A DNA stretch of 63,814 bases, counting the filler, from Folioceros fuciformis (lineage: Eukaryota): assembly GCA_049999805.1 (NCBI GenBank). It is 4 parts of 4 records of this genome, joined end to end, with 100 filler letters (N's around TTAATTAATTAA, not from the genome) between each part and the next. Parts side by side here need not be neighbours in the genome. Positions count along the whole stretch, not along the records: positions 20,804 to 45,384 come from JBNGIO010006341.1; 3 more parts are not named here. One strand, written 5' to 3'. A model generated the notes under the pieces. The model was not told the DNA's origin, searched no databases, and saw nothing but the letters and a program-made list of their open reading frames with translations. Numbering within the stretch: the stretch's first letter is position 1; each line of letters begins with the position of its first letter. This document shows, in pieces, positions 26,722-63,049 of the stretch. The position numbers and the translations under genes were made by a program.

Positions 26722-27740
26722 AGATGAGGGCTAAGGTCTTGTGCTCCCTTGTTCTGCCTTGCCCTATCTTTAGCTCATCCGCAGGATCCTGGGGAACTGC
26801 TGAGGTTGCTATGAGATTGCTGAATAACTGAAGAAAGTTGTTGAGAATTGACTGGGTGGGTGTGAGTGATTGCTGGAAACTTGGACGATTACTGGAGAAA
26901 TTGCTGAGGAATTCTTGGGCGTTTGGGAAGAACCGTCGGGGGTTGTTGAAGATTGTGGCAGCGTGTGAAGTATGGGGAAGGATCACTAAGGAATTGCTGG
27001 AGGTTGGTCAGCATTGCTAAACGATTTGAGATGTTGGAAACAGACCGGTGAGAAGTAAGTGTACCCCCGAGATCTGGTGTGTTTCGTGTGTGTGTGCGCG
27101 TGGGTGTGAGAGAGTGCGGTGATCTGCAGGGTCCTGCTCCCCAAAAGATTAGCACGCGGTGGGACCTGCACGGAAGATATTAGTTAGGGTTTAAGGTGGG
27201 ACCCACCACTGTTATGTAACCCCCTACCAATCGTGGAAGTTACCAGTGGTTGCGGAGGCCACGATCGTGGTCGTAGAGTAGGGACGATTGGTAGTTACCA
27301 GTGGTTGCGGAGGCCACCACCGTGGTCGTAGAGTAGGGACGATTGGTAGTTACCGGTGGTTGCGGAGGCCACGAACGTGGTTGTAGACTAGGACCAAAGT
27401 CGTAGAGTCGGGACCGCGGTAGCTAGGCTAACTGGGGGTAGTGGATAAGGCCTGACCTAGGTAAGAGTCAGTAGTAGAAGAAACTTGTGTTACTTGGCTT
27501 AAATCATTCCCTTGGGATCGAATCCCATGGCTACAACAACGTAGAGGGTTTGTGTGGGCCTCGCGATGTTCTCGGACATAACATTTTACTCCACAAATCA
27601 CGATTACTAGCATCCACAATATCCGCCTAGGTGTTGACTACCGAAGGTCTAACTTGATCCTATTAGGGGTGTTGATTGCCGAAGGTCTAACTTGATCCTA
27701 TTAGGGCTCGATCTTATCGATTTTGCACACGATTCTTGGT
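26430..27740 (-). mobile_element. Fragment of an LTR-type element (repeat-bearing terminal region, leader, start of a degenerate ORF)
   Basis: 27140-27600 is homologous (inverted) to 28400-28790 and to 43625-43700; internal 55-bp and ~37-bp tandem repeats. Confidence 0.5.
27238..27392. repeat. 55-bp tandem repeat, about 2.8 copies
   Basis: TACCAGTGGTTGCGGAGGCCAC... restarts at 27241, 27296 and 27351. Confidence 0.9.
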
Positions 27741-28339: not shown

Positions 28340-29107
28340 CACTCCAAGAGTAATAGAAAGTAGGTTGTCTTCATTCTATCTTTGGTAGTATTGGGATACG
28401 ATTGTTGTGGAGGAAAATATTGTGTCCGAGGACACTGCGAGGTCCACACAAACCCTCTATGTCATTTTAGCCATGGGATTCAATCCCAAGGGAATGATTT
28501 GTGCCAAGTAACACAGATTTCTCCTAATACTGACTCTTACCTAAGTCAAACCTTACTATTAGTTCTTCTACCGACTACCCTCTTCCACTACCCCTTAGTT
28601 TGTCTAGCTATCGCGGACCCTACTCTACAACTCTGGTCCCTGCTCTACGACCGGGGTTGGGGTCTCCACGACCACTAGCACCCCCACGACCGGTTGGGGT
28701 TTCCACAACCGATAGCGGGTTCCACTATAGTGGTGGGTCCTACCTAAAGCCCTAAGTAACACATGCCAGTGTAGGTACCACCGCGGGTTCCTACCCACTG
28801 GTTCCTGTCAGGATCCCCTGAGTCACGGGTCGGGGTTTGTTGAACACTCCTCGTACCCGCAGATACACACTTAGACAAACCAGTTCCATGGGGCAGCCAC
28901 ACCTCACACTTTGCACCTACACCGTGCTTCCAGCACACACCAAATCTCCAACGTACAGTTACTCCTCACCAACTTGCTCTCGAATGTCTTTGTCCCTCAG
29001 CAGCGTCCACGATTTCCCAGCGGTCTCTCAGCGATCCTTCACACCACAGTCTCTTAACAACGTTCCACATCATTCAGGAATTCCCTAGTAATCTTGTCTC
29101 AACCTTA
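28340..29107 (+). mobile_element. Diverged copy of the same LTR-type terminal/leader region, opposite orientation
   Basis: CACACAAACCCTCTA...CCATGGGATTCAATCCCAAGGGAATGATTT...AAGTAACAC...TACTGACTCTTACCTA matches the reverse complement of 27455-27560. Confidence 0.55.
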
Positions 29108-30368: not shown

Positions 30369-32160
30369 TGTAGCGGAAAAAATATTTGAGAACCCCCTTC
30401 CCGAGTGTCATATCTGGTGGATTTTGGTTTTTTCGTAAAGTAAGGAGACAGCGGCTTAGGTTGAGAGTAAGCAGGGGTATATATGCACAAGACCTCCTTG
30501 GAACATGAGGTTTCGGGGTAGACTAGTGGCCGGACCAGGTGTCCGAGGGCTGTTTGGTCCTTGGGTCTCGATAGTTAAATAAACACTAGGGAGCCTATAT
30601 ATGTAGACCCCCCCCCCCCGAAATTAAGAAATAAGAGACGACCCCTAGGTGAGGAAGGTCATGGACTTAGGCTAGAAAATAAGGAAGTCGTGACTCAGCA
30701 ACGGTAGGGGAAGGTGAACCACCGTCATGGAAGGATGACTAGTCCAGGGGGTGGTGGAACTACAACGACCAGACAAGAGAAAACCCTAAGTAAGGATGAG
30801 GAGGGTCCGGGTGTGATTTCGAAAAGGGAGCGCAACCGAGGAGTCGGGGAGCGGAAGTGGTGGATGGCACGTGAGCGGAAGAGGGGCAAGTAGATCAAAG
30901 GCATGGCCACGGGCAGCGACTTCTAAGTAGGACAGGGATAGCACAGGCGTCGACCAACCATGGGGAGGTGCGGTGTTAAGAAGAAGACCATGGAGGATGA
31001 AGAAGGAGGAAGCGACTGCGAAGCTGGTGCCGGCGGGCGTGGCCAGGGATGCAGATTAGGTCATTGTGCTCCTAGTTTAGGTCGCGCTCTGGCCTAACAT
31101 GGATCACTAGAGGGCTAGTAGAGGAGCTAGGCCTCGGGTTCATGGCCCAATGGTGGAGCCACGCAGGACTTGCCTTGGTGCGGGAGTGTGCACAACGGCT
31201 GAGGAGTCCAGCGGAAGGAGAAGGCATCAGGGGGAATCCTCAGGACTGGAGCGTCGACTTGGTCCGAATGGTGTATGGGCGCAGCCAGGAGGAAGCAGGA
31301 GGACTGGTCATAGAGTCCTTGAGGAAGCGTAGCACGACGGCAGCAGCGGCGGCGTTGTTCAAGGCAAGGATAGGGAGAGAAGCCAACAGCTGGCTGGCCC
31401 GAGAGATGGCGGCTGCCCAACTCATGGGGCTGGCTAGGTGGCTCCTGTGCTTCCTACAGAATAGGAAGCAGGACTACTTGTCTGACCACATGCTCTTGTT
31501 TCTGCATGAGGTGGTCAAAGGCAGTCGGATGGATTGGGGGAACATCCTTTACGATCGGCTAAATGAGGAGAGACAGAACCTGTCCTCCCCCACTCCCCGC
31601 TCGTCGATGATTTCGCCATTTCTTGTGCATTTGTCTTGTCACGCTAACAGCTTACCCGAGATAAAAGTCGTTGCCTCTCTGCACATGTGGAAGCCGGTTA
31701 GGGAAGTCAAGTGGAAGCCGGAGGAGCCAAGGGAAGAAGTCGAATCCAGCAATTGGGAATCAGGAGCCACGGGAAGCTCAGAGGAGGAAGTAACAGTCAA
31801 CAAGAAGCAGAAGGCAGGATTAGGGCGAAGACTCCTGCGAAGAAGAGGAAGGTGGGTGGCCGAGTTGCCAAAATTACAGGCGAGTTAGCACGGCAGGAGG
31901 TCGTTGAGAAGGTGTGCGACAAGGCCTTGGATGCACCTCAGGAAACGGTGCCAGGAGGGAAAGTGGGCCCAGCTAAGGTGGCAAGTGAGTTAGGGCAAGC
32001 CCAGGAGGAAGAACCCTTCCCAGGATGGGAAGGGATTTTCAACAGCGTTCCCATGGTGACGACGTTGCAAGAGGAGGATCTTGTAAGGAATGGAAACCCT
32101 AACATGACTTATACTACAGTTAAGGAGTTAACTCAAAAGACACTCAAATATTTTTGTATT
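30369..32160 (+). mobile_element. LTR-type element fragment inserted into the Copia RT, carrying an uncharacterised accessory ORF (31142-31888)
   Basis: Starts TGTAGCGG exactly where the Copia RT stops; ORF has homologs at 44748-45102 and 63050-63560. Confidence 0.55.
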
Positions 32161-33249
32161 TAAGGACACTTGGTCCTTGCAGTAGTAGTGATATTGCAGA
32201 ATTCTGTTGCCTTCTCATGCAGCTGCAAGTGAGCACTATGGTAGGAGCATCACACAGGAAGCCTCTTGGACCATCTATATTCGGATTTCCCAACAGTCTG
32301 TGGCAGATGTGGATGTCCTCAGTGTCATGACTTAGAAAGTTTGCTAGAGTTTTGCGTCTGTGAGAACTTTTTGTGCAGATCGCAAATGTGAAAGCTGTTT
32401 GCGTGGGACAAATACGCTTGTGCTAAGAATAAACCCCTTTCGTTATGACTGAAGATATAGTTGGCAGACAAAATTTCTCGTGAAGGAGCGGTTGAAGAGT
32501 AGGGTTTTTGATAGATAACTTTTTAGGCAGTTGATAACGGTTTGAAAATGATCATTCAGGTCATTAGTAACGGTATGTTATAGGGATATAGGGTCAAAGA
32601 AAGAATGGTCGAACATTCTTTTGATAGCTCACTTAGAAAGCCTGAAAATCGGTGGCGCACTGAGGATTTTTCAATGTGTGATAGAACTCTAAAGCTTGTA
32701 GCAAATTGAACAATTGAATCAAAGGTTCTGTGTTATCAGTCATCATTTGTACACATTAGCAAACAGGAAAGCGCTGTAATGGCTTAGCACGGAGCATCAT
32801 TAGATTGATATCTTAAAACTTATCACTATCAAAAGAATTGTTCGTTAGAAAGTAAGCATGTGCATGAGTTTTTCATGTCTTGAGAACAAAATGCTTTGTT
32901 TAAGAAAAGAGTGTTTAAGAGAGAGAGTTGTGGCAGAATTGCAAGGAACTGTTTAGATTATCTTGATGAATTGTGCGATTGAGTGAGTGGTCTTGCTGAG
33001 GTCTGAAGGGTGTATGAAGGTTTTAAAAACATAATTGTGAGGAAGGACTAGGCAGTAAGTAGGACAGAGAGAGTGCAAAAGTGTTAGCAAAGCAGGCATT
33101 GCTGAAAAATTTTGTTTGGGTAAGGGTTGCCAAGATCAGGGTGAGTCAAGTTGGCATTTGAGCATAGTTTGTTCTTGCCTTGTTGAGAGATGACGAGAGA
33201 GGGTTTGAGCCGTGGTACTGGAGAGGAAACTTAAGGCAATGGAACGTAG

Positions 33250-35491
33250 GGTAGTGAGATTAGGTGTGTGGAGAACTTTGCAAGGAGAGCAAGACGGAAG
33301 GAGGCGCAGCCATGGCGGGCAAGGGGAAGGAATTTGCAAGGGGTTCAGGAGCTTGGAAGGCGCACGGTGGGCAACAAGCGAAAGGTCGCTCCGGAGCAGT
33401 GACTATGGGCAGGGTCAGGAAAGCTCAACTTCTCCAGCAGCTTGAGGAGTAGAAGGCGGAGTTGGAAAGACTTAGGGGTGGCTTGAGTCCTAGGTTGGAG
33501 AGGCTGAGAGATGCAGTGACAAACGTCTGTGGACCATTTGTGCTACCAGCAGTGATAGGTAGCTTGGTTGCAGCTCGATTGGGAGAAAGGGGAAAGACTG
33601 GCATGGAGAAGTTTGAAGGGGGTAGGTGTCGCCGTTTTGACAGATCAGGAGCAAGAGCAAAGGGCACAGTGTGGCAGTGGTGAGGTTTTGTCAGAGAAGT
33701 TGTCACTGTCCGCGCGTGAGCAGTGAGGTGAGGCCGAGTTTGCAAGAAACACTCCACCTACAGTTCAGGAGGTTGAAGAAACTGTAGTGCTGCCAAGAAC
33801 TGGAAAGGAGGTCGTGTGCGAGGTGAGAGAGGAGAACGGGCTGCTAGAGTGTGATGCGCCAGGAGCACACGAAGCAGGAGAGAAAGGTTGGTGTCCGGCA
33901 GGGGTTCTTTCGATGACGTTTACAGAAGGGGGCGAAGACGGACTGCCAGGAGAGGGTTTCCTAGCAAAGCCGACAAAAGTGAAGGAGGTTGCGGTGTTGG
34001 AGGAGAAGTTTGTAGCAGCGCTGTTAGCTTGCAAGGAGGGCACGCCTAAGGGGAGCGTGTTGTCGAAGGAGGACGCTTCAACGAACAAGGAACACATGCT
34101 GAAAGAAGGCGTTCTTTCAGGAGGAGAGATTGCGGCAGTGCCAAAGGTGGGCGAGAGAGAGATACAGCAAGGAGGGAGTCTTATTGTGGTGCTGACAATG
34201 GATGAAGAAGGTGCAGCGCCAGAGAATCCTACGTTGGTGGTTGCAACAACAGGAGGGGAGAATGAATTCTTGAAGACGATACCGGTGGCAGCATCGACGA
34301 TTGAGGAAGGTGGTGGGCTGTTAGCGGAAGGTTTTGTGGCAGCACGCCTAGTGGAAGAAGAACGCAAGTCGCCGCTGAAGCCTACAACTTTGGCAGTTAC
34401 AGCAGCAGTCCCAGACATCGAGGCGGAGCACGAAGAGGTCGCCAGCAGCGTTGCCAAGGCCGAGGCGAAGGCGGTTATTGGAATACAGTTCCTCGTCGTA
34501 GGAAGTGAGTAGTGCCAGTAAGGAGCTGGTGGGTGGGAAGCAAAAAACGGTTACGAAACCGTTGGTGACAGAAAAGACTGAGCAAGATAAAGGACCGGGG
34601 CAAGAGGAACGCGAGCAATTGTGTGAAACAGAGACAGCGCAGGACGTAAACGCTGGAGCAGAGGAGGAATTTTGTGACGGTAATCAAGACTCGTTGCAAC
34701 CTATGTAAGATGAGCGTGAGCAAGAATTGGAATAATAATAATAATCCATAATGGCAATACAAAAATGTTTAAATACTTTCTAGATGTCCTTTCACTAGAC
34801 AACCCCTAATTATATATAAACTATATATATATCCCTAACCGTGGGTTAAGTTTAACCATTCTGCGCTAACACAACCTCAGTGGAATTTGCTGCAGAATCA
34901 CCGATTTTCTAGGGAGGAGCTGCGAAGGTTTCGGGAGGAGACAGAGCGGGAGGTGGAAGAGCTCTCTATGGAGATTGTGGAGCATACAGTAGAAAAAGTC
35001 AGGCTTGTGGCACTGCTGAAGGACTTGCAAGCACGTGAAGTGGAGAAGAGGCCTCAGCTCGAGGAGATTGTCTCCATAGAGCTGCTATCGGAAGGTGGGG
35101 CGAGCTCCATCTTCAGTACTCTCTGGGCAGGCAGCCGGACGTTGCCTATGAAGTTATTACGAGGCAATATCAGCAATTGAAGAGGAACGAGTCGCCACTG
35201 GTGAAAAACGGAGTGGGGAACAAGTGGAAGGCTTCTGAGGGGCCTAGGCAAGTCGAGAACTACCACGAGAAGGACCCACCTAGGAGGAGTTCAAACTATC
35301 AGGCTGGGAGAGGGAGAGTATACCGAAGAGGATACGCCAGATGGAAGGTTAGTGAGGGTGCGGTGACTGGGGACCTTCCTATGAGAAGGTCCAAAAGACT
35401 TAAGTTAGAGAAGATTGCTTCAGAAGCTGCAACAGATAATGTTAGTGTAAAATTGGTTAGCAGCAGCAGTGAGGGAGGTTCTGCAATATAG
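33250..35491 (+). pseudogene. Long degenerate Glu/Lys/Ala-rich ORF upstream of gag, inside the candidate 5' LTR/leader
   Basis: Run of plus-strand ORF pieces 33264-33683, 33787-34512, 34505-34708, 34887-35180 and 35177-35491; 34505-34702 joins 34878-35180 in frame once the 169-bp insertion and one repeat copy are removed. Confidence 0.45.
34703..34871. mobile_element. 169-bp AT-rich insertion, probable solo LTR
   Basis: TGTAAG...CTAACA termini flanked by direct repeat CAACCT (34697-34702, 34872-34877); removal restores the reading frame DSLQP-QWNLLQNHRF. Confidence 0.7.
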
Positions 35492-36152
35492 AAGCAGTTC
35501 AGCAGTAAGACAGAATTAAAGTTTTGCATGAGTATACAAGTTTTTACCTTTGGAAATGATAAAGGGAACTTATCATTTGGTTGTGTAAAGATAACTGGTG
35601 AATTTTTTTTTCTTGTAAGAATGACGAAAGTTGTGTAGGGAAAACTCATTTGGGTGAGGAGAGTGAAATAAAGAAGAACAGTTTGGAGAAATCAGAAGAG
35701 AAAGAGGAGTTGGGCGAGCAAACTTTTCGAAGGAGGACCAAGAGTTTTATAAGAAGGAGGAAGAACAAAAAGAAAGAGGACAAGAAATTTACAATAATAG
35801 GATGTTCACAACCAAAGAATTGGAGTCAACTCGAGGCATTCTGTGATGATTTGATAGCGCTTGAATGACACTTTTCAGATGTGAAAAGTTTAGTGAAGTG
35901 CTTAGAGAGAAAAGAGGGAGAGGTGAACTTAGTGTGGAATGCCACCAGGCGTCTTGTTTTTGAGCTAGTGTATTCTCCACTGTATCCGTGCTGGTTTGGA
36001 TATAAACCAATGTGAGACTTGATTAGTTGTAAAAGTTATCAAACTTTGGCATGACAATCTTTATTTGAACTGGTGCTTAACTTTTAAACATAAGAAGACC
36101 TGTGATAAAAAATGTTAGAGTGACTCAGCCAAGTGTTAGATGAGTTGAAGTA

Positions 36153-37607
36153 TTGCCTAGGCCAAGAAGTGAGACAAACTCTGTACAAGTTGGGAGAGGT
36201 GAAAAGAGGGTAATGAAGGATAAAAGTTCACACAAAAGATTTAAGAAAAAGGTTGAGCAGTCAAAGATGAAGAGTAAAGGAGCAAACACTAAGAGTCTGG
36301 GGGGGAGCTATATTTCAGGCAGTGTGCTGGATGAGGAAGGAGGGAATCCGCATAGAGCGAGTGTTTTAAATAAAGACGTAGAGGGAGAAATTGGAAATGT
36401 AGATCTTAATAGGAACATTGACAAAATACATAAAACATCTGTGGGAGTAGAAGCAAGGGAAGAAAGATTACAACTGTCAGATGAAGAGTGGAGGCGTAGG
36501 TGCAAAGAAAGAGGGTTTGTGATTAGAGACAAAGAACTTGTCATGGACGTACAGAACCGGACTATGGAGCCTATGGAAGTACAAAGACAGCCAAAAGAAG
36601 TGAATGATGTGAGAACGTTGGTGAGAAGAACAGACAATCAAATGTTAAGCTTGTCAACTGAAAAGGTTTTTGGGATGGAAAGAAAAGGTAGAGGGGGAGT
36701 GGTACTGCCTGCAAAGAGTGAGAAGTATTCTGGGCATCCCAAGTCATCAGTATCCATTAGCCAGTTAATGTGTATGTTTCATATGATTAAGTTACAGGAG
36801 TGTGGAGGTGAGGATGTTGAGTTGGATCTTATATATGAATTTACTTTGTTAGGGAATTTGTTATGTGGAGATTCTTACAAGTTTTATTTGAAGAGTTTCA
36901 TGGATTTGGTAGTGTCCAATAAACATGTTGAGCCAGTGAATGAATTCTTCATTCGATTGGAGATGAGGTTTCCATCTGTTAATGCCATGAAGATAGAAGA
37001 GTTGGCAAATTTAAAAAGGAAGCTGGATGAGATAGCACTTATGTTTTTCAATCGTACTAGTCAGCTGGTAACAGATACAGGAATGAACAACGAGATGGAA
37101 GTTTGTTTTAAGTATATTTGTAATTTGGATGAGGATATTAAGGAAGATGTGTTTAGAGAATTGACAGCATTGTATGGTAAAACATACACACTAGAACAGG
37201 TATTTTCAATTGTAGAAAAGCATGAGTAGGCAAGAGCATTGCTAAAGGCCATGGGAAGAAAGGTTGGAGCGGATAGGAAGGGAGGTGTATTTTCAGCGAC
37301 AGTTCACCAACATAATTTTTTGCCTAAATGGAGACTGACTCGATAGCAGCAACCAAACATGTCAAGAATGGACAACAGGTACATGAAACCTGTCTTGAAT
37401 GTAGAGACAAAAAAAGGGATAACGTGCTTGTGTTGTGGGAGTAGTTCTCATGTGATGATGGAGTGTTCAAATAAGAGGGTTGTAGGTTGTAATCATTATG
37501 GAAAGAAAGGACATTTGGAGAGAGTTTGTTGGCAGAAGTATCCTTCTCTCAAGCCTACAAAGTTTGGTTTTAAGGGGCATGGTGTTAAGAATGTGAGACA
37601 AGTGTAG
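36153..37607 (+). pseudogene. Gypsy gag with two CX2CX4HX4C zinc knuckles (second one degenerate)
   Basis: CLCCGSSSHVMMEC and CNHYGKKGHLERVC at about 37425-37530; capsid-like helical region before; in-frame stops. Confidence 0.75.
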
Positions 37608-37868
37608 AGGGCTGAAGAAAATAAATTTGGAGGAGCTAGTGAAGATAGTTTAGGTCGGATGGGCAAATCTTACAAATCGTTAGAGTTGCAGATAGCAAAC
37701 TTGAACGCTGAGAATGATAGGTTGAAGGCAGCTGGTGGACCGAATGGCGGAGTTTAAATCAAGGAAGTTAGGACAATGGAAAAAAAGAAGGATTTGGGTG
37801 AGAAGGAGAAAGCTTAAAAGGAATTTCAGCTGGATGCATTTGTTTGTGAAGTAGACAGGGGAGATGCA

Positions 37869-38924
37869 TTGGAAGTAGAGGTTGCTCAGAAAAGATACAA
37901 CACAAGGCTGGAAGGTCAGCATAAGGACCATGGAAAATCGACGGTGTCAGGTTGGAAATATCTGCAGTCATTTGAAGTATTAGATGTGGATATGAAAGAT
38001 TTTGGTGAGAAGATGCATGGCAGAGTGGTAAAGGTGTTGAAACAACAAGTGAATAAGAGAATGCACGTGTCTCAAAATGATGTGATTGGTTGTATTCGAA
38101 GTATGTTAGAGTTGGGCATCAAGGTGGGGGTGAGCGAGGCAAAAGTCCAAGAACTTTTACAGGACGTGATAGTAGAGTGTCCTAATGCAAATGAGAAGTT
38201 AAGCAAAATAATTTTATTTTGTCTCAATGGTAATATGCGTAATAATGGAGATAGAGCAAAAGTTAGACCAGGAATTTCATTTCTGGACAATGGTGGGTGT
38301 GAAGTTTTGATAAAAGGTTTTGCGCCTGAAAAGGTATTGATAGATTCAAGAGCGCAACCTACATTGATCCATTTCAGCACAGCATATGCTATGGGATTGA
38401 GAAAGGAAGATATACAGGAGACAAAATGGAAGATTAGGATGGCCAATGGAGGTCTGGAGATAGTGATGGGGGAAACTAAAGAGAAATTTCAGTTGTGTTT
38501 TAAGTGTGGGATAGAACAAGAGACGATGATTGATAAGAAATGTTTGATTGTTGAATATGGAAATTTTGATGTTATTTTAGGGACAAAGGCTTTATTTATG
38601 CATGGAGGAGGAGTGGACTTATGGACAAAGGAGTTTTACTATCGTCTAGGGTGGCTACAAGGTGAAGAAACAAGAGTAGCAACAATTCCACTTAAGTTGC
38701 AATTACAGGAGGACATGCAGGATGCGTGTGTAGTAAATATGACGACTTCTTGGGATGAGCAGGAGGAAGAAGATGAAGATGATAAGTTGTGGATGGAACG
38801 TCATATGGATAAGTTATGTTTAAAGGAATGTAGTCATAACATAGTGGAAGAAATTGCAATGAGAGAAAATGTTGGTAGAGCATTAGCTGAAATTTTTAGA
38901 GAGCTTAAAAAACGACAAAACTGA
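37869..38924 (+). pseudogene. Gypsy aspartic protease region
   Basis: VLIDSRAQPTLI (degenerate DSG), IRMANGG flap, FDVILG. Confidence 0.8.
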
Positions 38925-39024
38925 GTTTTAGCTGGATGATAAAATTCAGCTTTGTACAAAGGAAGCAGTTTGTAAACTTGAACTTGTGTGTAATAAACTT
39001 GTGACATTGAGTTTGTCTAAGTAT

Positions 39025-40010
39025 GGATTGGTAGTGGTTGAGTTGTTTGCTAGGATTGCATCTAGTCTGGAGGCTGTGTTGGCTGCTTGGTATGTGATTA
39101 GACGTTACATTTATTGTGATCCAGATGAAGTTTGTCACGCAATTGCAAAGTCTAGGGTATTTAAGTTATGCAAAAAGTATCCTGAATAGTTAAAGGTTGA
39201 AGCTGTGAAGCAAGCATTTTCTGTCTGGCCGCAAGATGTTAGGCTTATTGGATTGGTACAATTTCAAATGGAGGAAGAAGTTGATTTGATAATAGCTGGC
39301 TGGGAATGTCAAGGGCATTCAATGGCGGGCAAGGGAAAAGGCTTGTTGGATTATAGGTCATTGTTATTTTATGAGCTAATTAGGATTTTGAATTGGGTGC
39401 AAAGACATTAGAAGGAAGAATGTGGTTTTTTGATTGAGAATGTGGATTCGCAAATGGATAGTGAACCTTAAACCCTAAACCCGAGATGGATTGAAGAGTG
39501 GTGTTGAGGCGGAGTTTTGAGGAGATCAAGTATTATTTGGGTGAACCTATAAAGTTGGATATGGTGCAGTTTGGATCTAGGGCTCATAGGCATCGTTGTT
39601 TTTGGAATAATATGATGCCTAGGCATTTGTTGCAAATGCTTGTGAGTCAGTGGCGAAGGGATGATAATTTAATAGTTGATCAGATATTAGATGAGGGGCG
39701 AGTGAGTAGGCAGGTGATTTCAGATGATAGACAGCCCTTTTATTGTGTAAATAAGAAGGGGGAGCTCAAGAGGGTGTTACCGACGTTTGTAAGTTTTGAG
39801 GGCGCCAAGGCATTTAAAGGGGAAGGACTTGGGATGATATTTGATACGAAGAGGAAGGTGTGGGATGTACCATCTCCCATGGAGAGAGAAAGGGCGATGG
39901 GTTTTGATACAAATACTACTCAAGTGGAGGGCATAACATTTGAGCAGAGCAATAAAAAACTCGGACAAGCTATGGATTTGAATACAATTAGATGGCTCAT
40001 GATGTCTATA
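39025..40010 (+). pseudogene. C5-cytosine DNA methyltransferase domain within pol
   Basis: Motifs in canonical order: I VELFARI (39037), IV DLIIAGWECQGHSMAG (Cys at 39307), VI FLIENV (39436), VIII GSRAHRHRCFW, IX ERERAMGF, X KLGQAMD; stops at 39187 and 39409, frameshift near 39470. Confidence 0.88.
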
Positions 40011-40379
40011 AAATTTTATCATGAATGGAAGAGAAAATGGAAAGTTATTTTAGGCAGAAGGTTGGAAGAAAGTAAGCTGGGTGAAGTAAGAAGAGATGAA
40101 GACCTACACGCTAGGGGGGAGACTAAGAGGATGAGAGAGCATGATGAAGTTTTCGGTGATGACTGTAAGCAGAGCAAATAGATGAGACATGAGGCAGAGG
40201 TTGTAGATGAAGAAAGAAAAACTGGGAATGTGGCTAGCTCAAGCTGGGAGTTTAACGTTTAACAGGAGTGTACGAGTTTTCAATGGGATATTTCCGATGA
40301 GGTAACTTTGGAAGATAGGAAGGATTTTGTAAGGATTTTGGAAGCTAGTAGGCAGGTATTTGCTTTTTCCAATAAGGAA

Positions 40380-41400
40380 ATTAGGCAGGCACAAGACGTT
40401 TAAGTTTAAGATTCGACTTAAAACGCTGAACCGGTTTTTAGAAGGCCATATCGTTTGAGTACATTGGAGAATGAGATTGTAGACAAGAAATGTCAAGAGT
40501 TACTTGAAGCTAGATTGATAAGACCCTCGGAGTCAGAGTATGCAGCAGCTACGGTGCTTCCACCAAAAAAGAATGTGCATGGTAATTGGACTGAAAAGAG
40601 GATGTGTGGTGACTATAGGCCGCTTGAGCATAAGGAGCACGTTAGGCGAGTGTTGGAGAGATTGGAAGAGGTCAGTTTGACGTGTCACCCACAAAAGTGC
40701 AGGTTTGGGTCCTCTAAGATAGCATATTTGGGACATTTTATAATGCCTAAGGGTACGACACCATCTGATGTGAAAGTTGAAGCAATAGCAAAGATGATAC
40801 CACCTTCAAATGTGGGAACTTTGCGTTCTTTTTTAGGATTGGTGAATTATTACCGCAATTTTGTGGCAAACCAGAGTGTGGTGGTAAAACCAATGACAAT
40901 GTTGTTAAAGAAAGATGCAGTGTGAGTTAGGGGAGAAAATCAGCACAGAGCATTTAAGGAGATAAAGGACATTTTGATGAGCAAGCCCTTATTGACAAGA
41001 CCTAATTTTGATAGAAAGTTTAAGTTATATATAGATTGGAGCAAACTTGGTTTGGGGGCAGTGCTAGTGCAAGATGATGAGAATGGAGTAGAACATGTGG
41101 TAGCATATGCAAGCAGGAGTAACAATTCTGCAAAGAGCAATTATTCCTTGTATTATAGGGAATGTTTGGTGGTTGTATGGGCAGACCTTATTTGTATGGG
41201 ACTCAATTTGAGTTGGTGATTGATCATTAGCCTTTGAAGTGGTTGTTGAAGAATGAAAAGTTGAGAGGAAAGTTAGCAAGGTGGGCACTTATTCTGCAGG
41301 AGTATAATTTTTCTATGGAGCATAGGGTGGGTGTGAAGCATGCAAATGCAGATGTATTGTCAAGGAATCCATTAGGGACTTTAGAGGACTCAACAGTTGC
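40380..41400 (+). pseudogene. Gypsy reverse transcriptase (central YxDD segment deleted) and RNase H
   Basis: LIRPSESEYAA, KRMCGDYRPL fused directly to EHKEHVRRVL, KCRFG..IAYLGH, LRSFLGLVNYYRNF, LYIDWSKLGLGAVLVQ, VAYASR, GKLARWALILQEY, HANADVLSR. Confidence 0.9.
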
Positions 41401-41518
41401 CAGGCAGGATTTTGATAACAATGTTGGGATTGACTGGAATTTGGTGGTGTCCAGATAGACACCTCATGCATACTTGGTAAATTTGGTAGAGTTGGGAGTT
41501 TCTTTGGTGTGAGTAGAT

Positions 41519-42961
41519 GTGTGGGAGGATAAGAACACATTAGGGAGAGTGATGATAGGTGGTAATCAGGAATCGCTAACGGTGAAGGAAAATGACAGGG
41601 TGACAAAGCAAAGTAGGAGATATGTATGGGTTGACAATAAGTTGTTGTTGAAAGAGAACATGAGGGTGGTACCAAGACCTGAAGAAAGAATGGGTTTGGC
41701 AAGAAAGATTCATGTAGAATTAGGACATTTTGGTACAAAAAGAACATTAAGTTTGCTCATGAATAGTTATTATTGGAAGGGAATGATGGATGTAGTTGAG
41801 AAGGTAGTGTCTACTTGTGAGGTTTGTGATAGGGTGAAGGCAAGTTTCTCAAGCAAAACTTCTCAACTTCACCTACTACCTATTAGAGGGATGTTTTATA
41901 GGTGAAGTTTGGATTTGGCTGGAGAGTTGCCAGTCACGCAAAGAGGTTTTAAATATGTGTTGGTAATGATAGAACATTTTTCTAAGTGGATAGTTTTGGT
42001 GCCTTTGAGGGGGAAGAAGTCACATGATATTAAGGAAGCATTTCTTAATCATGTGTTGAGTGTTTTCGGGGCTTGTGCACAAATTTTGACAGATTAAGGT
42101 ACTGAATTTATGGGAGAGTTTGACAAATTTTTAAATGAGTACCTTATTGATCATAGGGTAACTTCAAGAAATCATCCGGAGGCTGATGGTTTGGCAAAAA
42201 GAATGGTACAAACATGTAAGAGTGCTTTGAGGAAATATTGTTTGGTAATGGACAAGAATGAGTGGGATAGGATGTTACCATTTCTTGCAATGGGTTATAG
42301 AATGAGCAGGCAAGCATCGCTGGGAAAGTTTTTGCTGTACATGTTGTTGTTTAGACGTAGACCACAAGTATCTAGGATGTTAGAAGACAAAGTGAATGCT
42401 ATAGTGGATTTGGATGATCCTAATAAGTGGTTAAAGATAGTCACACATAGAGTAGAGTTGTTTAGAAAAATATTGCCTATGGCAATGGATAATTTGTTAA
42501 TAGCTCAACATTGGGATGAGTTAAGATACAGGAAAACAAGGAGTGGACATTTCAAGCCCAAAGTGAAAAAGTTTGAAGTTGGAGATTATGTATATTTGCA
42601 ATGGAACACAATGACAACAATTGATACAAGTGCGAGCAGGGTAATATTAAGGGTGAGAAGTGTGAAATTGAATGGAATTTTGGAGTTTGAGGGAAAGGAT
42701 GGTACAACTTGTTTGGAGCACATGAAAAATTGTGCACTATGTCATTTACCTCACTTAAATCCGATAATTGATGTGCAAGCTTTTGTGCCAAGGAAGGGGT
42801 TTGCTTGTACAGGTTGTGGAGATTCTGGAGGTGATCATTGTATGTTGTTGTGTGATAGGTGCAATGATGGGTGGCATAATTTTTGTTTAGAGCCCCCACT
42901 AGAAGCAGTGCCAGCTGGGCAATGGTTTTGCCCAATGTGTGTAGCAGACGATACGTTGTGA
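41519..42961 (+). pseudogene. Gypsy integrase with C-terminal PHD finger (42806-42940)
   Basis: HVELGHFG...CEVC zinc finger, DLAG, IEHFSKW, LTD*GTEF, HPEADG, FEVGDYV; then CTGC-x11-CDRC-x4-H-x2-C...WFCPMC (C4HC3). Confidence 0.9.
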
Positions 42962-43130
42962 AGGGCAGTATGTTCAGCATATATGTATGTTGATGAAAAG
43001 TTTGTTAATCTAGCTTTCCAACGAGAGATGGTTAGCAGATTAAGGGAGGGAGTGAGGAAACATCCAGGAATTATGAGTGTGATCACAGAACTCACATCAA
43101 GGGAGGAGGAGTAGAGATGGGCTACTCCTT

Positions 43131-43473
43131 TCGTCGAACTTGTGTGTAGCAAACCACCAAAGAGTGGCAAGATGACCAGTAGCCTTGATGTGCACGACGG
43201 AGAGGAAGCACTCAAGGGGAGGCATCAAAGTGCACTATCGACAAGAATATACGCGTATACCATATAGGGGCTGGCCACCCCATATACATATGTATGCATG
43301 ATCGTCGATCTCGTGTGTAGCAAACCACCAAAGAGTGGCAAGATGACCAGTAGCCTTGATGTGCACGACGGAGAGGAAGCACTCAAAGAGAGGCATGAAA
43401 GTGCACTGTTGACAAGAATATAGACGTATACCATATAGGGGCTGGCCATCCCCATATACATATGTATGCATGA
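43131..43473. repeat. 171-bp tandem duplication in the 3' UTR of the Gypsy element
   Basis: TCGTCGA..T.GTGTGTAGCAAACCACCAAAGAGTGGCAAGATGACCAG... at 43131 and 43302. Confidence 0.9.
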
Positions 43474-43607
43474 TATATATATAGTATGTATGAGTGTTCA
43501 GAGACGTCTAGGGTTAAGTTCAGATGTTGAGGAGCAAGACCTCTTAAAGCATGACAGCTGCCATGACTTAGAAAGTCTGCTAGAGTTTTGCGTCCGTGAG
43601 AACTTGG

Positions 43608-44745
43608 AACCAAATTGGGATTTGGTTCCAAGGGAATGATTTGTGTTAAATAACACAGGTTTCTTCTAAAAGTCAGTTACTACCTAGGACGGACTTTAAC
43701 TACCTCAGTTCCACTACCTGCTGGTTCAACTACCCCTACCTTTGTCCCTGGACTACCTGATAGACCTACTCGGCTACCGGGGTGGGGGTATCTACAACTA
43801 CGAACCCTTCAACTACCGCGGTAGGGTCTAAACTACTAGTAGCCGCTTCGGCTACCATGTCACCCTTACAACTACTGGTAGCCGCNNNNNNNNNNGTAGC
43901 CGCTTCGGCTACCATGTCACCCTTACAACTACTGGTAGCCGCTTCGGCTACCTTATCCCGTGACTACCCTACGGATGACCTGGCTAATCTGTCACCCCTC
44001 CGGCCAGTACTGCACTCGACTACTTCCGTTCCCCTTCCAGCAACGGTCGCCCGTCCGACTACCCTAGTGGGGTCCTCTTACTCTCTCTCCTCTCTTTCTC
44101 TCTCTTTGCTTTCTTTCTCTAGCCCGAGGAACTTACCTTCCCTCCGATTCCTCCAACCTTAACCCTCGTATCGGGGCTTTCACCTTCATGCACGTTTCCT
44201 CAGGCACACACCTACCCACCCACACGGACTTATAACTCCCCACATACTCCAATTGCACACGGGTACGCCCCGCTGTCAATTCTCAGGCATTACCTCACAG
44301 CATGTAAGCACCTCCATTTCTCACCCCCTTCCGCGCTCCGGACATTCCCCTCCCCCCCCCTCAGTCGCGCATACACGATCTATACCCCATCTTGCAACTG
44401 CCACGAAGAACGCTCGCACAACCCCACAGCGACATCTCAGCTAAACTCTTACTAGGGACTGGCCCACAACCTAGTCGCACTCGGTCACTCATCCATCATA
44501 TTGATTCCCCTCGCATGCTCCAGCGGTCTCCGCTCTACCAGTGCCGCGACTGCCTCTCACAGTACTTTGCTCAGCCCCCCCGCTCTCTCCCGAATCACAC
44601 CAATAGCACTCAACCGCTCGACCCCAATCCCAAAGTTTTTTCTCACTCACGCACTTTACTACACGTCGCCACAATGCACTTACCACCTACTTCCCCACCT
44701 CCTAAGCCACATTGACTTCTCTTTCTCCCACTCGGCGAGGCTCCT
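43608..44745 (+). mobile_element. Fragment of the LTR-type family seen at 27-29 kb, with 39-bp tandem units spanning a small N-gap
   Basis: CCAAGGGAATGATTTGTG..AAATAACACAGGTTTCTTCTA matches 28485-28530; GTAGCCGCTTCGGCTACCATGTCACCCTTACAACTACTG repeats at 43838-43950. Confidence 0.5.
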
Positions 44746-45384: not shown

Positions 45385-48300
45385 NNNNNNNNNNNNNNNN
45401 NNNNNNNNNNNNNNNNNNNNNNNNNNNNTTAATTAATTAANNNNNNNNNNNNNNNNNNNNNNNNNNNNNNNNNNNNNNNNNNNNAGCTCTTCCTTAAGAG
45501 TACCATTCAAGAATGCTGTTTGTACATCCATTTGGTGGACATGCAAATCATGAAGAGCAGCCAAGGCAAGTATGACTCTGAGTGAGGTTAGTTTTACCAC
45601 AGGATTGAATGTTTCAGTATAATCCAGGCCTTCACGTTGGGTGTACCCACGAGCAACTAGACGTGCTCTGTACCGAGCCAGTGAGCCATCTGCTTTGTAT
45701 TTCTTTTTTTAGACCCATTTGCAGCTGATGACATGCTTTCCAGGTGGCAGGTCTACAAGTACCCATGTCTTGTTGAGCAGCAGTGAGTTGTACTCATCAT
45801 CTATAGCTGCCTTCTAGTGTGGGGCTTCAGAACCTGCAAAAGCTTCTTGCACAGTGGATGGGTCTCCAGCTTGAGTTAGGAGAGCATGTGCCATCAATCC
45901 CCGAGAAGATGTAAAAGTTAAGTCATGAAATTTGACAGCAGGGATGCCACGGTTGGATCTAGATGAGTGTCTTCCAAGAGAAGGCATGGATTCAGAGACT
46001 CCCTCCGTAGATACACCTGAAGTTGACAAGTGTGGAGGCTGAGATGAACCAGATGATAAAGATTGATCAATTAGATCTTGGTCAGTGTTTGCCCCCCAGC
46101 CTTCACTAGTGTCAGAGAGGGAAGTCGGTGCATCTTGAAAGTCTTCCTCAGGAAAAACATCGAAACCTGGTGGTAAAGGTAAGTGAAGTGCAGCCTGCTG
46201 ATACGGTGAGAACCATGGCCTCTGCTGTGACGTTGCCACAGGTGGTGTGGGTGGATAGCCAATAGGGGGGGCAGGAGCATTAGGAACAATGGCCTGTTGT
46301 GAAGCTAGGGGGGTAGGTGAGGACGGTGTGGAATCGTCACCATCATCGAAAGAAGCCACCACGCCATGGGAGGGATCAGCAACAGGAGAGGCCACGGAGT
46401 GAGAAGGGGCATCCCAGTGAGAAGTGAGGACGAAATCTTCATCAAAGCGCACACTACGGCTGAGAGTGACACGCCGAGTTTGTCGATCCAGTAACCTGTA
46501 ACCCTTCACACCATGGAGCTCACCGTAACCAATAAAGGTAAGTTGCTTGGACTTGGGATCAAGCTTCTTCCGTTGTTCATCTGGAACATGTTGGTAAGCC
46601 ACACAACCAAAAACTCTAAGATACTGCAAATTGGGTTTATGTCCTGTCCAGATTTCAAAAGGAGTTTTGCCCTGCAACGCAGATGTGCTACATCTATTTT
46701 GAACATAACATGCTGTAGCCACAGCATCTGCCCAAAGGAAATGAGGGAGATTTGCAGCCTGTAGCATACTACGAGCAGAATTCAGCAAGTCTTGGTTCCT
46801 CTTTTCAGCTTTGCCATTCTATTGAGAAGTGTAAGGAGTAGTATGTTGGAGTTGAATCCCAGCTGTAGAGAGGAAGCTCCGAAAATCCCCGGAGGTAAAT
46901 TCACCACCCCCATCAGCTCTGAAAATCTTGATTTTGTGGTTGAGCTGATTTTCCACAAGTGCCTTGAATTGCTGAAAATAATGCAAGGTTTCGAACTTGT
47001 GCCGTAGAAAATATACACTGGTGAAGTGACTGAAGTCATCTAGAAGGACGAACATGTATAATTTGCCAGCCAGGGATTGGGTTTGCATCGGACCACAAAA
47101 ATCAGCATGAATTAATCCTAACAAGGCTGTACTTTTGCTAGTGGAAGCTGAGAACTTATGGACACGGTGCTTCCCTTTAAGACAGCCTTCACAAAGAGGA
47201 AGATCTGTCAACCTGCTAGGAAGACCAACAACCATGTCTAATCTTTGCATCTGTTTGATAGAATTAAGATTCAAGTGAGCCAACCGATGGTGCCACAAAG
47301 TGGTGGTTGCTTGGGCAGGAGCTGTAGAGGCTATAAGGCTAACAACAGAGCCTGACCCTGTAGCAACGGGGAGACCTCTACCAAGAGGATACAACCTCCC
47401 AGATTGGGAACAATCAAAGGAGAATTGCTGACCAGAGGGTGTAACAGAAATAACTTTGCAATGATTATGGAAAAATTGCTTACTGCTGCCGCTGATCTTT
47501 GTAGCCTCATGTACAGAGATGAGATTCTTAGCTAGACCAGGTACATGAAGCACATTATCAACAATGATGTGCTGATGGTGGGGAGAACCAAGCTGTATTT
47601 GAACAGAGCCTACACCAGCAGCAACGTGAGAAGTGTTATCACCCATGAAGACTGGACGAGGTTGGGAGAGGGGTTTATAAGTAAGAAACCACTCCCTTTT
47701 TGGAGTCATGTGCTCCGTGGCACCAGTATCCAGATACCATGTGTCCTGCAGATATTCGTCACTTGTAGAGGTGACAGAGAACAGATGGATAGGAGCTGAG
47801 CAAGCAAGGTTTGCTTGAGAGTTTGAGGAGGAAACGCCAGAGGATTTGTCCCGTTTCTTCTTCCTACTATCAGGAGCAATATGGCCTTTCTTTTGACAAT
47901 AATGACAGATTTTGTCCTTGTGAGCGGGGTTGGATGGAGGAAACCTAGAGGCAGACGGTGGTCTACTAGACGGCTTCTTCCAATGCTTAGAACCCCCAGC
48001 AAAGAGAACAGTAGGACCCTTAGCAGATTGAGTAGGATCTGACCTAAGGACTGCATTATGCATAATCTTCGAGATTAATACTGTCAATATTAATGGATTG
48101 GCAGGTGTATACATACTAGATTGAGTGGATACGAAGGGTTGCCACGAGGGTGGCAAAGACCGCAACAAGTGCATGACTTGTTCTTCTTCATCAATCTTCA
48201 GCCCGGCGGAAAGGGCCTCATCCAAAACACCTTGCCAAGACTCCAAGAAGTCAAGGGGAGAGTCCCCTTCTTGCATGCGGGTGGCTGCAAGTTTGTCCTG

Positions 48301-48938
48301 TAGGTGAAGTTTGGAAGCCATGCTGACGGCTTGATAGGTGCTAGCCAGCTTGTCCCAAACTTCCTTGGAGGTTGTCAACTTACTAAGAAAGGGTATTTGA
48401 CGATCTCCCACATGGAGAATAAGATCGGAAAGTGCTTTAGAATCGCGTTGTAACCAAGCAGGCTCATCAGCATGGCCTGCTGAAGGTTTGACATCGGTTC
48501 CATCAACCACCTTCCACAAATCATTTCTTAGTAATAACATTCTTAATTTGACACTCCAAGTATGATAATTAGTACTGGTGAATTTGTCAATTTGATAGGT
48601 TCTGGAAACATTGCTCACAGACGCCATGATACTTTGTAGTAGAAAAACCAACAAAGCAAACTGGAGTATAAGAACACTGATTTGAGGTTTCAAGAACCGT
48701 GCCAAAGTTTTAAAATAAGTTCTATAAAGAACCTCTATAAGAGTCTAAAAGAAGGAAGTTCTATAAAGAACCGCCATAGAACTTGTAAAAGTTCAAGAAA
48801 GGTCATTGCCGATTATGCAGCGGAGTGCACACATCGACCAGCAGTCTCTTAGATTCAAGAACATTACAAAGAACATTCTGTGAAATTAGACGTAGAAAAT
48901 ATTTTGTGGTTTCTACATGCAAGACCACCGCATCTAAC

Positions 48939-61897: not shown

Positions 61898-63049
61898 GGC
61901 CGTGTCTGTGCTGTGCTGTTCTGCTCTGCTCTGCCTGACGCGGCTCTGAGCACTGAGCTTCGCAGGAGGAGCGGACAATGGCGGCGGATACGAGCACTGG
62001 CACCAGAGCAGAGCGGGAATTGAATGGGCAGAGGAGTGGGAGTGCAGGGAGTGGAGCGTGGAGGACCGTGTGAGGCATGGACAGGCCTATCCTTACCTCT
62101 GGACCCTCCACCAATCCTGCTCCCCTGCGTTTCCTTGCCAGGATAGCGTTCTCTTTCTTATCTAGCCTTACTTATTCTCGCACTTTCTCCACTCGTTTTC
62201 GTTAACCTACTCATTTCCTCTCCGCTTGCTCCTCCCTCTCTGACCGTGTCGTTGTTTTCTAAATTACGAACGAGGCCCTGAGAGTATACCGCATGGGTGA
62301 AAAGAAAAGAAAACAGATATCATATTAAAAGAGATAAACATTATGACCAGCCGACTGCTCCGCGCATTCTTCTTAGTGCTGAGGGCACAAATGAAGAGCT
62401 GCCCAAAGAAAGCTATGCTCCACCGAAACAAATCCTAAGTGTATGTTGCAGTCTTGGTGTTGAGAGAACTTGTTCTTACATCAAAGCTAAGCACTAAGGA
62501 ACCCAAGGAATATTACTTTGATAATTATCTATCGAGCTTAGGATGTTATGATTGTAGAAAACCAAGGGCCTACATGATATCAGAGCCAGAAGTCACTAGA
62601 TGTGTTAGAGCCCGACAAATCACTAGGCATTAGGCATGAAGCTATTAAATCTATACTAGTATTAATATATATAACACGTTTGCTAGCCCTCTTTGNNNNN
62701 NNNNNNNNNNNNNNNNNNNNNNNNNNNNNNNNNNNNNNNTTAATTAATTAANNNNNNNNNNNNNNNNNNNNNNNNNNNNNNNNNNNNNNNNNNNNCCGAT
62801 TTAGCTCTGCGATTACCTTTTGAGTTGTCCAATATAAGAAGGGGCACCAAGGTGATCGGAAGCGCCTTGGGCTGGGTTGTGGGGGTAGCAATCTTCTTTC
62901 TTGCTGGAGTAGCAGCATAGGGTGGTGTCAAAGCAAGTGGTAGCCTACAGATGGCCACTCTTTCCAAGTATGTTAGGACCCGGTGGCAACCCCAAATATG
63001 GAAATAAGAATGGGGATAAGCATGAGGCAAGAGGTTTCTCCTGCCGAAG

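Follow-up and report, generated by a model that had tools for sequence, protein, structure and literature searches.

The window analysed here, a stretch of 63,814 nucleotides, filler included (Folioceros fuciformis, assembly GCA_049999805.1), carries at 32323-43605 on its plus strand a decayed element of Ty3/Gypsy type with a C5-cytosine DNA methyltransferase (DNMT) domain in its pol region. The order of its parts is gag with CCHC zinc knuckles, protease (PR), DNMT, reverse transcriptase (RT), RNase H (RH), integrase (INT) and a PHD finger. From its sequence and that of its relatives, we consider it very probable that the element belongs to a multi-copy Ty3/Gypsy family of a land plant, as a dead copy with its RT core deleted, and that the native order of this family is gag(CCHC)-PR-DNMT-RT-RH-INT-PHD. 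The features of the coding part are the following.

36144-37229, plus strand: gag-like open reading frame (ORF); residues 120-319 of relative P0036 match at 36591-37133 (tblastn, E=2e-4).
37425-37529, plus strand: two CCHC zinc knuckles, CLCCGSSSHVMMEC and CNHYGKKGHLERVC in translation, the second minus one Cys.
38238-38700, plus strand: aspartic protease-like region (Pfam PF13975, E=0.004; RVP_2, E=0.036; both under the cut-off).
38932-39492, plus strand: N-terminal half of DNMT, frame 1, with motifs I, IV and VI and 3 in-frame stops.
39034-39066, plus strand: motif I, VVELFARIASS, degenerate (F-A-R-I-A against F-x-G-[IL] in the family).
39295-39321, plus strand: motif IV, AGWECQGHS.
39427-39444, plus strand: motif VI, FLIENV.
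39461-39495, plus strand: frame change within DNMT, from frame 1 to frame 0.
39495-40010, plus strand: C-terminal half of DNMT, an open frame with motifs VIII, IX and X.
39570-39605, plus strand: motif VIII, FGSRAHRHRCFW.
39882-39905, plus strand: motif IX, ERERAMGF.
39960-39995, plus strand: motif X, LGQAMDLNTIRW.
40431-40925, plus strand: remnant of RT, made up of an N-terminal lead-in (40431-40625) and a tail; only positions 165-203 of RVT_1 are matched (E=2.9e-4).
40926-41300, plus strand: RH (RT_RNaseH_2, E=4.8e-26), its tail matched in frame 2.
41680-42540, plus strand: INT, with H2C2 zinc domain (Integrase_H2C2, E=2.2e-15) and catalytic core (rve, E=2.9e-5).
42806-42940, plus strand: PHD finger of C4HC3 type at the C-terminus of INT (PF00628, E=8.3e-9, 35.8 bits against a cut-off of 24).

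The window shows the Gypsy pol order PR-RT-RH-INT, as judged from the Pfam matches and from tblastn matches colinear with P0027, a complete relative whose top match in the PDB is the Ty3 Gag-Pol polyprotein structure 7q5b (2.3e-91) and whose residues 1698-2181 also match the window integrase. The protease active-site stretch at 38337-38357 reads LIDSRAQ, with D-S-R where D-S-G is expected, and the PR segments of P0320, P0321, P0308 and P0060 match the window PR with E-values of 1e-12 to 7e-21 (tblastn). Pfam gave no match for the gag-like ORF or the CCHC knuckles; P0320 and P0321 align with the CCHC stretch at 37500-37580 (tblastn, E~4e-4).

An earlier note on this DNA, made from the sequence alone, had placed the C5-methyltransferase motifs I, IV, VI, VIII, IX and X between PR and RT. 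Aligned with 20 relatives, the window shows all six there in canonical order, without the rearrangement of DRM enzymes. The search with the DNA_methylase profile that it had proposed was likewise positive: with X set at its 3 stops, the translation of 38932-39501 matches PF00145 with 35.4 bits, above the cut-off of 22 (E=1e-8). The C-terminal ORF 39495-40181, searched alone, gave no Pfam match; against the PDB all 26 of its matches at E<=1 were to DNMT3A, DNMT3B or DNMT3C, weak as they were (best E=0.018). A profile of 20 family members reached PDB chains of DNMT3A at 1.5e-26, DNMT3C at 5e-23 and DNMT3B at 1e-22, followed at lower rank by DRM (7e-14), M.HhaI (7e-10) and DNMT2 (1e-4), and none of its 57 matches was a DNMT1 or CMT chain. 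In addition, the AlphaFold model of the relative P0305 (mean pLDDT 85.6) matched the catalytic domains of DNMT3A/B/C with a Foldseek E-value of about 1e-16 and a target-normalised TM score of 0.76-0.84, the target chains being the catalytic domain alone, and among the top matches listed there were only DNMT3A/B/C chains. Given the PF00145 match, the canonical motif order, the family profile and the fold of P0305, we assign the window domain, by profile and fold, to the DNMT3-type, non-rearranged C5 cytosine methyltransferases.

That the domain is integral to the element, and similar in composition to the rest of pol, had also been proposed in the earlier note, and both points held. The sense strand is poor in C throughout pol (PR 10.2%, DNMT 10.8%, RT-RH 12.6%, INT-PHD 10.9%), with 25% C in both flanks. 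Over the whole element, 32323-43605, C amounts to 12.8% and G to 29.2%, a GC skew of about +0.4, and the flanks are without such asymmetry. For copy number, Logan contigs of three DNA runs from one organism (X1, X2 and X3) were aligned to the window at an identity of at least 80%. Run X1 alone placed 1648 contig pieces on the element, of which 188 were at least 99% identical, 349 at 95-99%, 535 at 90-95% and 576 less than 90%. In X1 the summed depth was 234-312 in the DNMT bins and 121-460 across RT, RH and INT, and near-identical single contigs had a depth of 11-19; since summed depth is not a copy number, we take these values to say only that DNMT and the rest of pol are repeated to a like degree. 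The shared C-poor composition, the copy number like that of RT and INT and the recurring architecture described below establish that DNMT is integral to the element family.

Two explanations of the composition were considered and dropped. A C-poor sense strand as a general trait of DNMT-bearing Gypsy elements was ruled out, as five related loci have 21-24% C. Hypermutation of the window copy relative to its sisters was unsupported: differences in X1 are symmetric (A>G 428, G>A 422; C>T 232, T>C 244), which suggests that the C-poor strand is a trait of the family in this host.

Two further observations come from the sequencing runs. Another run, X4, tentatively taken for RNA, yielded 4 pieces, one of them a 9251-nt contig that meets the window only at motif IV (39292-39314) and at the start of RT (40587-40621), spaced 1211 nt apart there against 1273 nt in the window; this suggests a diverged relative and does not prove transcription. 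Run X3 has 608 C>T places on 32000-43100, against 232 in X1, many of which stand at 100% in X3 but at 0% in the other two DNA runs; among those listed, 14 of 14 were CHH cytosines, a context that makes up 63% of the Cs. X3 resembles a library made by bisulfite or enzymatic conversion and, if it is one, the family may be protected by methylation at its CG and CHG sites.

The domain has many relatives. With E<=1e-3, ORF 39495-40181 retrieved 553 cluster representatives, of which 295 reached E<=1e-10, and a set of 168 relatives was assembled from the best 150 of that search, 7 cluster members and 11 further sequences. The relatives were classed by BLAST with domain segments, and the counts refer to the 163 rows used in a FastTree phylogeny. 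The order of the window (PR-DNMT and/or DNMT-RT, type B) was found in 24 rows and the order RH-DNMT and/or DNMT-INT (type A) in 71, of which 20 are complete for RT-RH-DNMT-INT-PHD; in 67 rows DNMT stood alone. Examples of type A are P0003, P0023, P0029 and P0034, the first of which, from Chromochloris, has a G-patch after DNMT; many proteins from metagenomes belong to this type as well. Metagenome contigs scanned with the DNMT alignment gave 174 relatives, narrowed down to 80 loci. In every one of the 58 loci with enough sequence, DNMT is followed by RT at a distance of 0.3-1.5 kb, and in 58 of 63 it is preceded by PR-like sequence. Where the sequence extended for 3.6 kb or more downstream (41 loci), the order was PR-DNMT-RT-RH-INT-PHD in 20, DNMT-RT-RH-INT-PHD in 7, PR-DNMT-RT-RH-INT in 8 and DNMT-RT-RH-INT in 3, the remaining 3 being shorter. 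The INT-PHD ORF of the window shares 50% identity over 281 residues with two of these loci, L001 and L002. That the metagenome loci might represent the Sphagnum jensenii family P0313 was ruled out, the identity being only about 40%.

The trees place the window with relatives of its own order. FastTree was run on the C-terminal half of DNMT in 163 rows, 5 of the 168 relatives having been dropped for fewer than 120 aligned residues. In it the window and 23 of the 24 type B rows (the exception being P0312) fall into a cluster of 53 rows with support 88 and not one type A row. A 'quick' IQ-TREE of 71 rows, namely 51 from the type B cluster and 20 others, with 92 left out that were mostly type A, puts the window in a group of 46 rows that are type B or undetermined (SH-aLRT 85). 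Finer placement of the window is not to be trusted, given its long branch and deviant composition. The window DNMT belongs to a large green-lineage clade of retrotransposon-borne DNMTs. Named carriers of type B are the algae Closterium sp. NIES-53/54 and Spirogloea muscicola, the liverworts Calypogeia fissa and Marchantia polymorpha and the moss Sphagnum jensenii; a named carrier of type A is Chromochloris zofingiensis (Cz02g39130, the source of P0003). The Marchantia polymorpha entries are MARPO_0008s0049, MARPO_0084s0073 and AXG93 entries, and the first two, annotated as 'hypothetical proteins', are CCHC-PR-DNMT fragments, one of which reaches the start of RT (BLASTP against P0027). From the named type B carriers and the Marchantia fragments, the PR-DNMT-RT lineage spans Zygnematophyceae and bryophytes, which fits the proposal of the earlier note that such a lineage persisted into embryophytes.

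The same data bear on how the family came to its host. Transfer into a land plant from elsewhere, for example from an alga, rather than vertical descent from a streptophyte ancestor, is in our view unlikely, if worth serious attention. It would agree with the nearest relatives P0304, P0030 and P0002 being environmental sequences, with the position of the window inside a polytomy among Marchantia and Closterium rows, and with a C-poor composition that the related loci do not share with it. Yet vertical persistence from algae through to land plants would be expected to leave just such a PR-DNMT-RT clade, with members in Zygnematophyceae, in two liverworts and in a moss, and the family is old and diverse in its host, where 576 of the 1648 pieces lie below 90% identity.

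Whether the domain acts on DNA is a separate question, raised by motif IV. The window departs from the Pro-Cys dipeptide that is near-universal in C5-methyltransferases: the Cys is kept and preceded by Glu (GWECQ). Among the 84 of the 168 relatives with a recognisable motif IV, this residue is Glu in 54, Pro in 27 and another in 3; the Glu-Cys variant occurs in both domain orders. With 54 of 84 relatives sharing it, the Glu is a family trait and not a product of decay. It could be taken to mean that the domain, while integral, is no longer a DNA cytosine methyltransferase and instead methylates RNA, serves to bind DNA or forms a structural piece of Pol, with no methylation of cDNA. According to de Mendoza et al. 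2018, the DNMT of SymbioLINE failed to methylate DNA in yeast, and RNA methylation was raised there as a possibility (PMC5890265). We nevertheless judge this explanation quite improbable: Pro-Cys is kept in 27 of the 84 relatives, the P0305 model has the fold of DNMT3A/B, and a DIRS-borne DNMT3 methylates CG de novo according to the same source (PMC5890265). Moreover, 11 invariant and 26 nearly invariant columns remain in the DNMT alignment of 20 members whose identity to the first is only 27-39%, and the catalytic Cys, ENV, the motif VIII arginines (R-x-R) and motifs IX and X are kept across these divergent members. Conservation of catalytic residues at such divergence argues for a selected enzymatic role and, at the level of sequence, for long-term constraint on the family DNMT.

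The host was judged from a gene on the same gap-free sequence as the element.

22550-23990, minus strand: PPR-E-DYW gene of DYW:KP type, with Pfam matches to PPR and E and with DYW in two pieces (E=4e-10 and 4e-16).

The gene reads K-P in the 'PG box' (KKPAVATIEV), has an H-A-E active site and ends in G-R-P. One in-frame stop and at least 2 frame changes make it probably a pseudogene, or else mark assembly errors; DYW:KP is the kind linked to U-to-C RNA editing. DYW:KP domains are described as confined to hornworts, lycophytes and ferns, with GRP as one of two hornwort variants (PMC9478123). Named relatives of the PPR piece are all land plants, the best being Diphasiastrum (48%) and Ceratopteris (45%), and unnamed ones reach 61%. 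About 9 kb separate this gene from the element, with zero N runs between them. A DYW:KP gene on gap-free sequence, with land-plant PPR relatives, points to a land plant as host, probably, to judge from the G-R-P end, a hornwort; a lycophyte or a fern would also fit DYW:KP.

This evidence speaks to the concern that algal contamination or a misjoin brought the element into the assembly, so that it would not belong to a land-plant genome. The closest annotated relatives do include the algae Closterium, Spirogloea and Chromochloris, the window holds ten N runs, and a Copia element in it is only 36% identical to its best relative, which indicates a genome poorly represented in databases. Against this stand the gap-free sequence from the PPR-DYW:KP pseudogene to the element, a gene type restricted to hornworts, lycophytes and ferns (PMC9478123), the near-identical contigs in three DNA runs of one organism, and the related copies in liverworts and a moss; such an artefact, which the earlier note had itself named as a risk, is very improbable. 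It is scarcely credible that this one Gypsy copy alone took up a DNMT3 gene or pseudogene of the host, by insertion or transduction: retroelements do occasionally acquire host sequence, and the N-terminal half of DNMT lies in another frame than PR, but the domain matches RT and INT in depth at many times the single-copy level, has the composition of the rest of pol, recurs in the same order in named proteins of Marchantia and Closterium and in all 58 related loci with enough sequence, and carries its frame changes at sites where other copies vary in length, all of which also answers the reservation of the earlier note that other family copies might lack the domain.

The window copy is dead, as had been stated before, by virtue of 21 internal stops, three frame changes and a deleted RT core. 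The stops, to which a terminal stop is added, were counted along a gag-pol path through frames 0, 1, 0 and 2, with frame changes at 38924/38932, 39461-39495 and 41219/41222. Two of the changes fall where other copies vary in length, by 1 nt at 38919 and by 32 nt at 39461-39492; at the latter site other copies show a 32-nt skip (1-2 contigs per run) or have 21 nt in place of 53. The RT catalytic core with its Y/F-x-D-D box is gone from the window through a deletion at 40625/40626, and relatives retain it. About 106 core residues, corresponding to P0027 residues 1432-1537 and including the F-I-D-D box, have no counterpart between 40619 and 40629, and 8 contigs of X1 continue from 40621/40625 into RT domain 1-like sequence that is missing from the window.

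The ends of the element and its non-coding repeats comprise the following.

32323-32369, plus strand: 5' copy of a 47-nt terminal direct repeat, 94% identical to 43559-43605.
43559-43605, plus strand: 3' copy of the 47-nt terminal direct repeat, 94% identical to 32323-32369.
32323-32735, plus strand: multi-copy 5' terminal segment, summed depth 282 (X1, bin 32371-32741), after the end of which (32735) other copies depart.
32736-34600, plus strand: segment of low copy number within the element, either specific to a subfamily or an insertion, with 15.5% C and 34.9% G.
43131-43474, plus strand: tandem duplication of a unit of about 171 nt, 93-94% identical, in 3' untranslated sequence where relatives have their 'B' repeats.

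Just before 32323, 10-11 contigs per run depart from the window with low mutual agreement (0.42). Because these contigs diverge there both from the window and from each other, 32323 marks the true 5' end, common to many insertion sites. Direct 'A' repeats of 292-534 nt flank the coding part in 6 of 8 related loci examined, and 4 of these 6, one of them a variant, have 'B' on both sides of the 3' A, giving A...B-A-B, with B1-A2-B2 directly after PHD in the relatives. In L001, L009, L049 and L069 the place of plain long terminal repeats (LTRs) is taken by such direct repeats in A...B-A-B order, A measuring 292-524 nt and B about 180 nt. By comparison, 32323-32735 is probably an LTR-like 'A' repeat, of which the 3' copy in the window would be truncated after 47 nt. 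Searches for longer LTRs by BLAST (word size 9) and local alignment gave nothing past about 50 nt, with residual scores within the shuffled range, and no inverted repeats were found for the element. The window contains a further repeat of about 54 nt with the palindrome GGAACCAAAT...ATTTGGTTCC, at 27475-27527 (minus), 28474-28527 (plus) and 43616-43669 (plus); the first two are inverted copies about 950 nt apart and resemble a miniature inverted-repeat transposable element, and the third adjoins the 3' end of the element. The segment 32736-34600 is near single-copy (depth 18-60, three DNA runs), yet is flanked by multi-copy parts of like composition; its ORF 33727-34512 (261 aa, rich in E, G, A and V) has no Pfam match.

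The PHD finger had also been recognised in the earlier note. Searched against the PDB it returned 79 PHD chains at E<=0.01, the best being the first PHD fingers of Lid, KDM5A and KDM5B (E 7.6e-15 to 1.2e-13), with KMT2C/D, ATXR5, CHD4, BAZ2A/B, PHF21A, UHRF1 and AIRE among the further top relatives. Most of these relatives, the KDM5 PHD1 type among them, we take to be binders of histone H3 unmethylated at K4 (H3K4me0). Here we speculate that in intact members DNMT would be translated within Gag-Pol between PR and RT and, as a part of that polyprotein, could be co-packaged with RT in the particle. The enzyme would use S-adenosylmethionine to methylate cytosines of new cDNA or of DNA at the insertion site, and new copies might then arrive already methylated. 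The PHD finger on integrase would, by analogy with the chromodomains of chromoviruses, steer integration into silent chromatin, and the whole would amount to a low-damage, self-limiting strategy of the element. We hold methylation of the element's own cDNA or insertion site together with H3K4me0 targeting in intact members to be possible, at somewhat less than even chances. Still bolder, and doubtful, is the notion of a living land-plant Gypsy lineage with its own DNMT3-type enzyme, mostly of Glu-Cys type, and an H3K4me0-type PHD, pre-methylating new insertions in bryophytes and perhaps in ferns and lycophytes. If true, a transposon would bear the logic of DNMT3, 'read unmethylated H3K4, write 5-methylcytosine', and part of the transposable element (TE) methylation in such plants would be written by TEs themselves.

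Several points weigh against a native land-plant PR-DNMT-RT family and against the activity proposed for it. No intact copy was seen, the window copy is without the RT core and damaged in motif I, and an ORF of at least 600 aa occurs in only 2 of the 80 related loci. The best identity of the window to any relative is only 49%, and on IQ-TREE it branches from a polytomy with Marchantia and Closterium rows that singles out no sister. Host placement rests on one nearby pseudogene and on run labels. Classical LTRs are not demonstrable in the element, which has the 47-nt repeat only, no matching target-site duplication and no clear primer-binding site; no tRNA genes were found in the window. With Glu for Pro at motif IV, catalysis may differ from that of textbook DNMTs. 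Finally, the PHD finger, being on integrase, and DNMT would separate after polyprotein processing, which makes the cooperation of a 'writer plus reader' conjecture.

The window is otherwise rich in TEs, with a Copia element and LINE fragments carrying zf-RVT. The Copia-type element (45814-48744, minus strand) has open frames of 641 and 334 aa with gag, Pol_BBD, pre-integrase, rve and SH3-like parts, and the best database relative of its ORF is only 36% identical. The LINE fragments lie at 7306-9869 (minus) and 12914-14993 (plus) and carry RVT_1 and zf-RVT. N runs at 43839-43942, 20704-20803, 45385-45484 and 62696-62795 are flanked by, or alternate with, short exact duplicates; a 47-nt unit stands on both sides of the gap 43886-43895, by appearance a gap-closing artefact or masking. 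ESM Atlas gave neither an informative cluster nor an informative taxon.

Taken at the level of sequence evidence, the window extends the host range of Gypsy-DNMT3 elements to land plants. In the literature, such DNMT-bearing retrotransposons are those of dinoflagellates and one charophyte alga (PMC5890265), and later papers cite a 'streptophyte' Gypsy-DNMT3 (PMC12344493; bioRxiv 10.64898/2026.05.21.726589). Outside subscription journals, supplements and figures, we found no explicit land-plant DNMT-Gypsy in the literature, only K. nitens or 'streptophytes', and, supplements and figures aside, no mention of a PHD finger or Glu-Cys motif in such elements. With bryophyte copies already in databases as 'hypothetical proteins', and 'streptophyte Gypsy-DNMT3' already in reviews, the novelty is smaller than the earlier note implied. 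DNA methylation being the main weapon of the host against transposons, a transposon with its own de novo methyltransferase would invert the usual picture. The family is large, with 553 cluster representatives and two domain orders, and its relatives have gone unrecognised in liverwort and moss annotations. The question whether a TE-encoded DNMT3 writes part of a plant methylome could thus be made testable in Marchantia and other such plants, and annotation calls for caution, as TE-borne copies can inflate DNMT3 counts in non-seed plants.

Among known systems, the host enzymes DNMT3A and DNMT3B share the catalytic fold and motifs with the element, and they too combine a catalytic domain of DNMT3 type with a zinc-finger reader of the H3 tail, the ADD domain, which reads H3K4me0. 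The element, in contrast, is without PWWP or ADD, has its putative reader elsewhere on the polyprotein and encodes its enzyme on a mobile element, and motif IV reads G-W-E/P-C-Q in the element family and S-P-C-N in DNMT3A/B. Type A elements (RT-RH-DNMT-INT-PHD) share with the window element the DNMT family and, at the end of integrase, the PHD finger; they differ in that DNMT lies between RNase H and integrase, whereas in the window it lies between protease and RT. Chromoviruses likewise have a histone-reader domain fused to the integrase C-terminus, a chromodomain there and a PHD of KDM5-PHD1 type here. To our knowledge, chromoviruses carry no DNMT. Their chromodomain is presumed to tether integration to chromatin state (bioRxiv 10.1101/2021.11.30.470311).

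EpiLTRs of Cymbomonas and Euglena are LTR elements that assemble several epigenetic domains (DAM, DNMT and chromodomain); their DNMT is described as sister to DNMT4, located at the 3' end of pol and distinct from streptophyte Gypsy-DNMT3 (bioRxiv 10.64898/2026.05.21.726589). SymbioDIRS-Dnmt3 and SymbioLINE-Dnmt of Symbiodinium are, like the window element, carriers of C5-methyltransferases on retrotransposons, that of DIRS being DNMT3-like and reported to methylate CG de novo; they differ in class, tyrosine-recombinase DIRS or LINE, in host kingdom and in an independent acquisition (PMC5890265). The role proposed there for DNMT is methylation of cDNA on reverse transcription, serving self recognition, protection from deamination or chromatin at the insertion site (PMC5890265). 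KnitGypsy-Dnmt3 of Klebsormidium nitens, as described in the same paper, has like the window a non-rearranged DNMT3-related domain in a Gypsy Pol ORF and is multi-copy, its copies showing Ka/Ks<0.2 on DNMT, a sign of purifying selection among them (PMC5890265). We liken the two by description and not by sequence, and the host of the window element is, in contrast, a land plant. The K. nitens element has an unusual 'DIRS-like' repeat arrangement (legend of Fig. 4c, PMC5890265), and it is this arrangement that the A...B-A-B repeats of the relatives, together with the duplicated B-like unit and short A copies in the window, recall.

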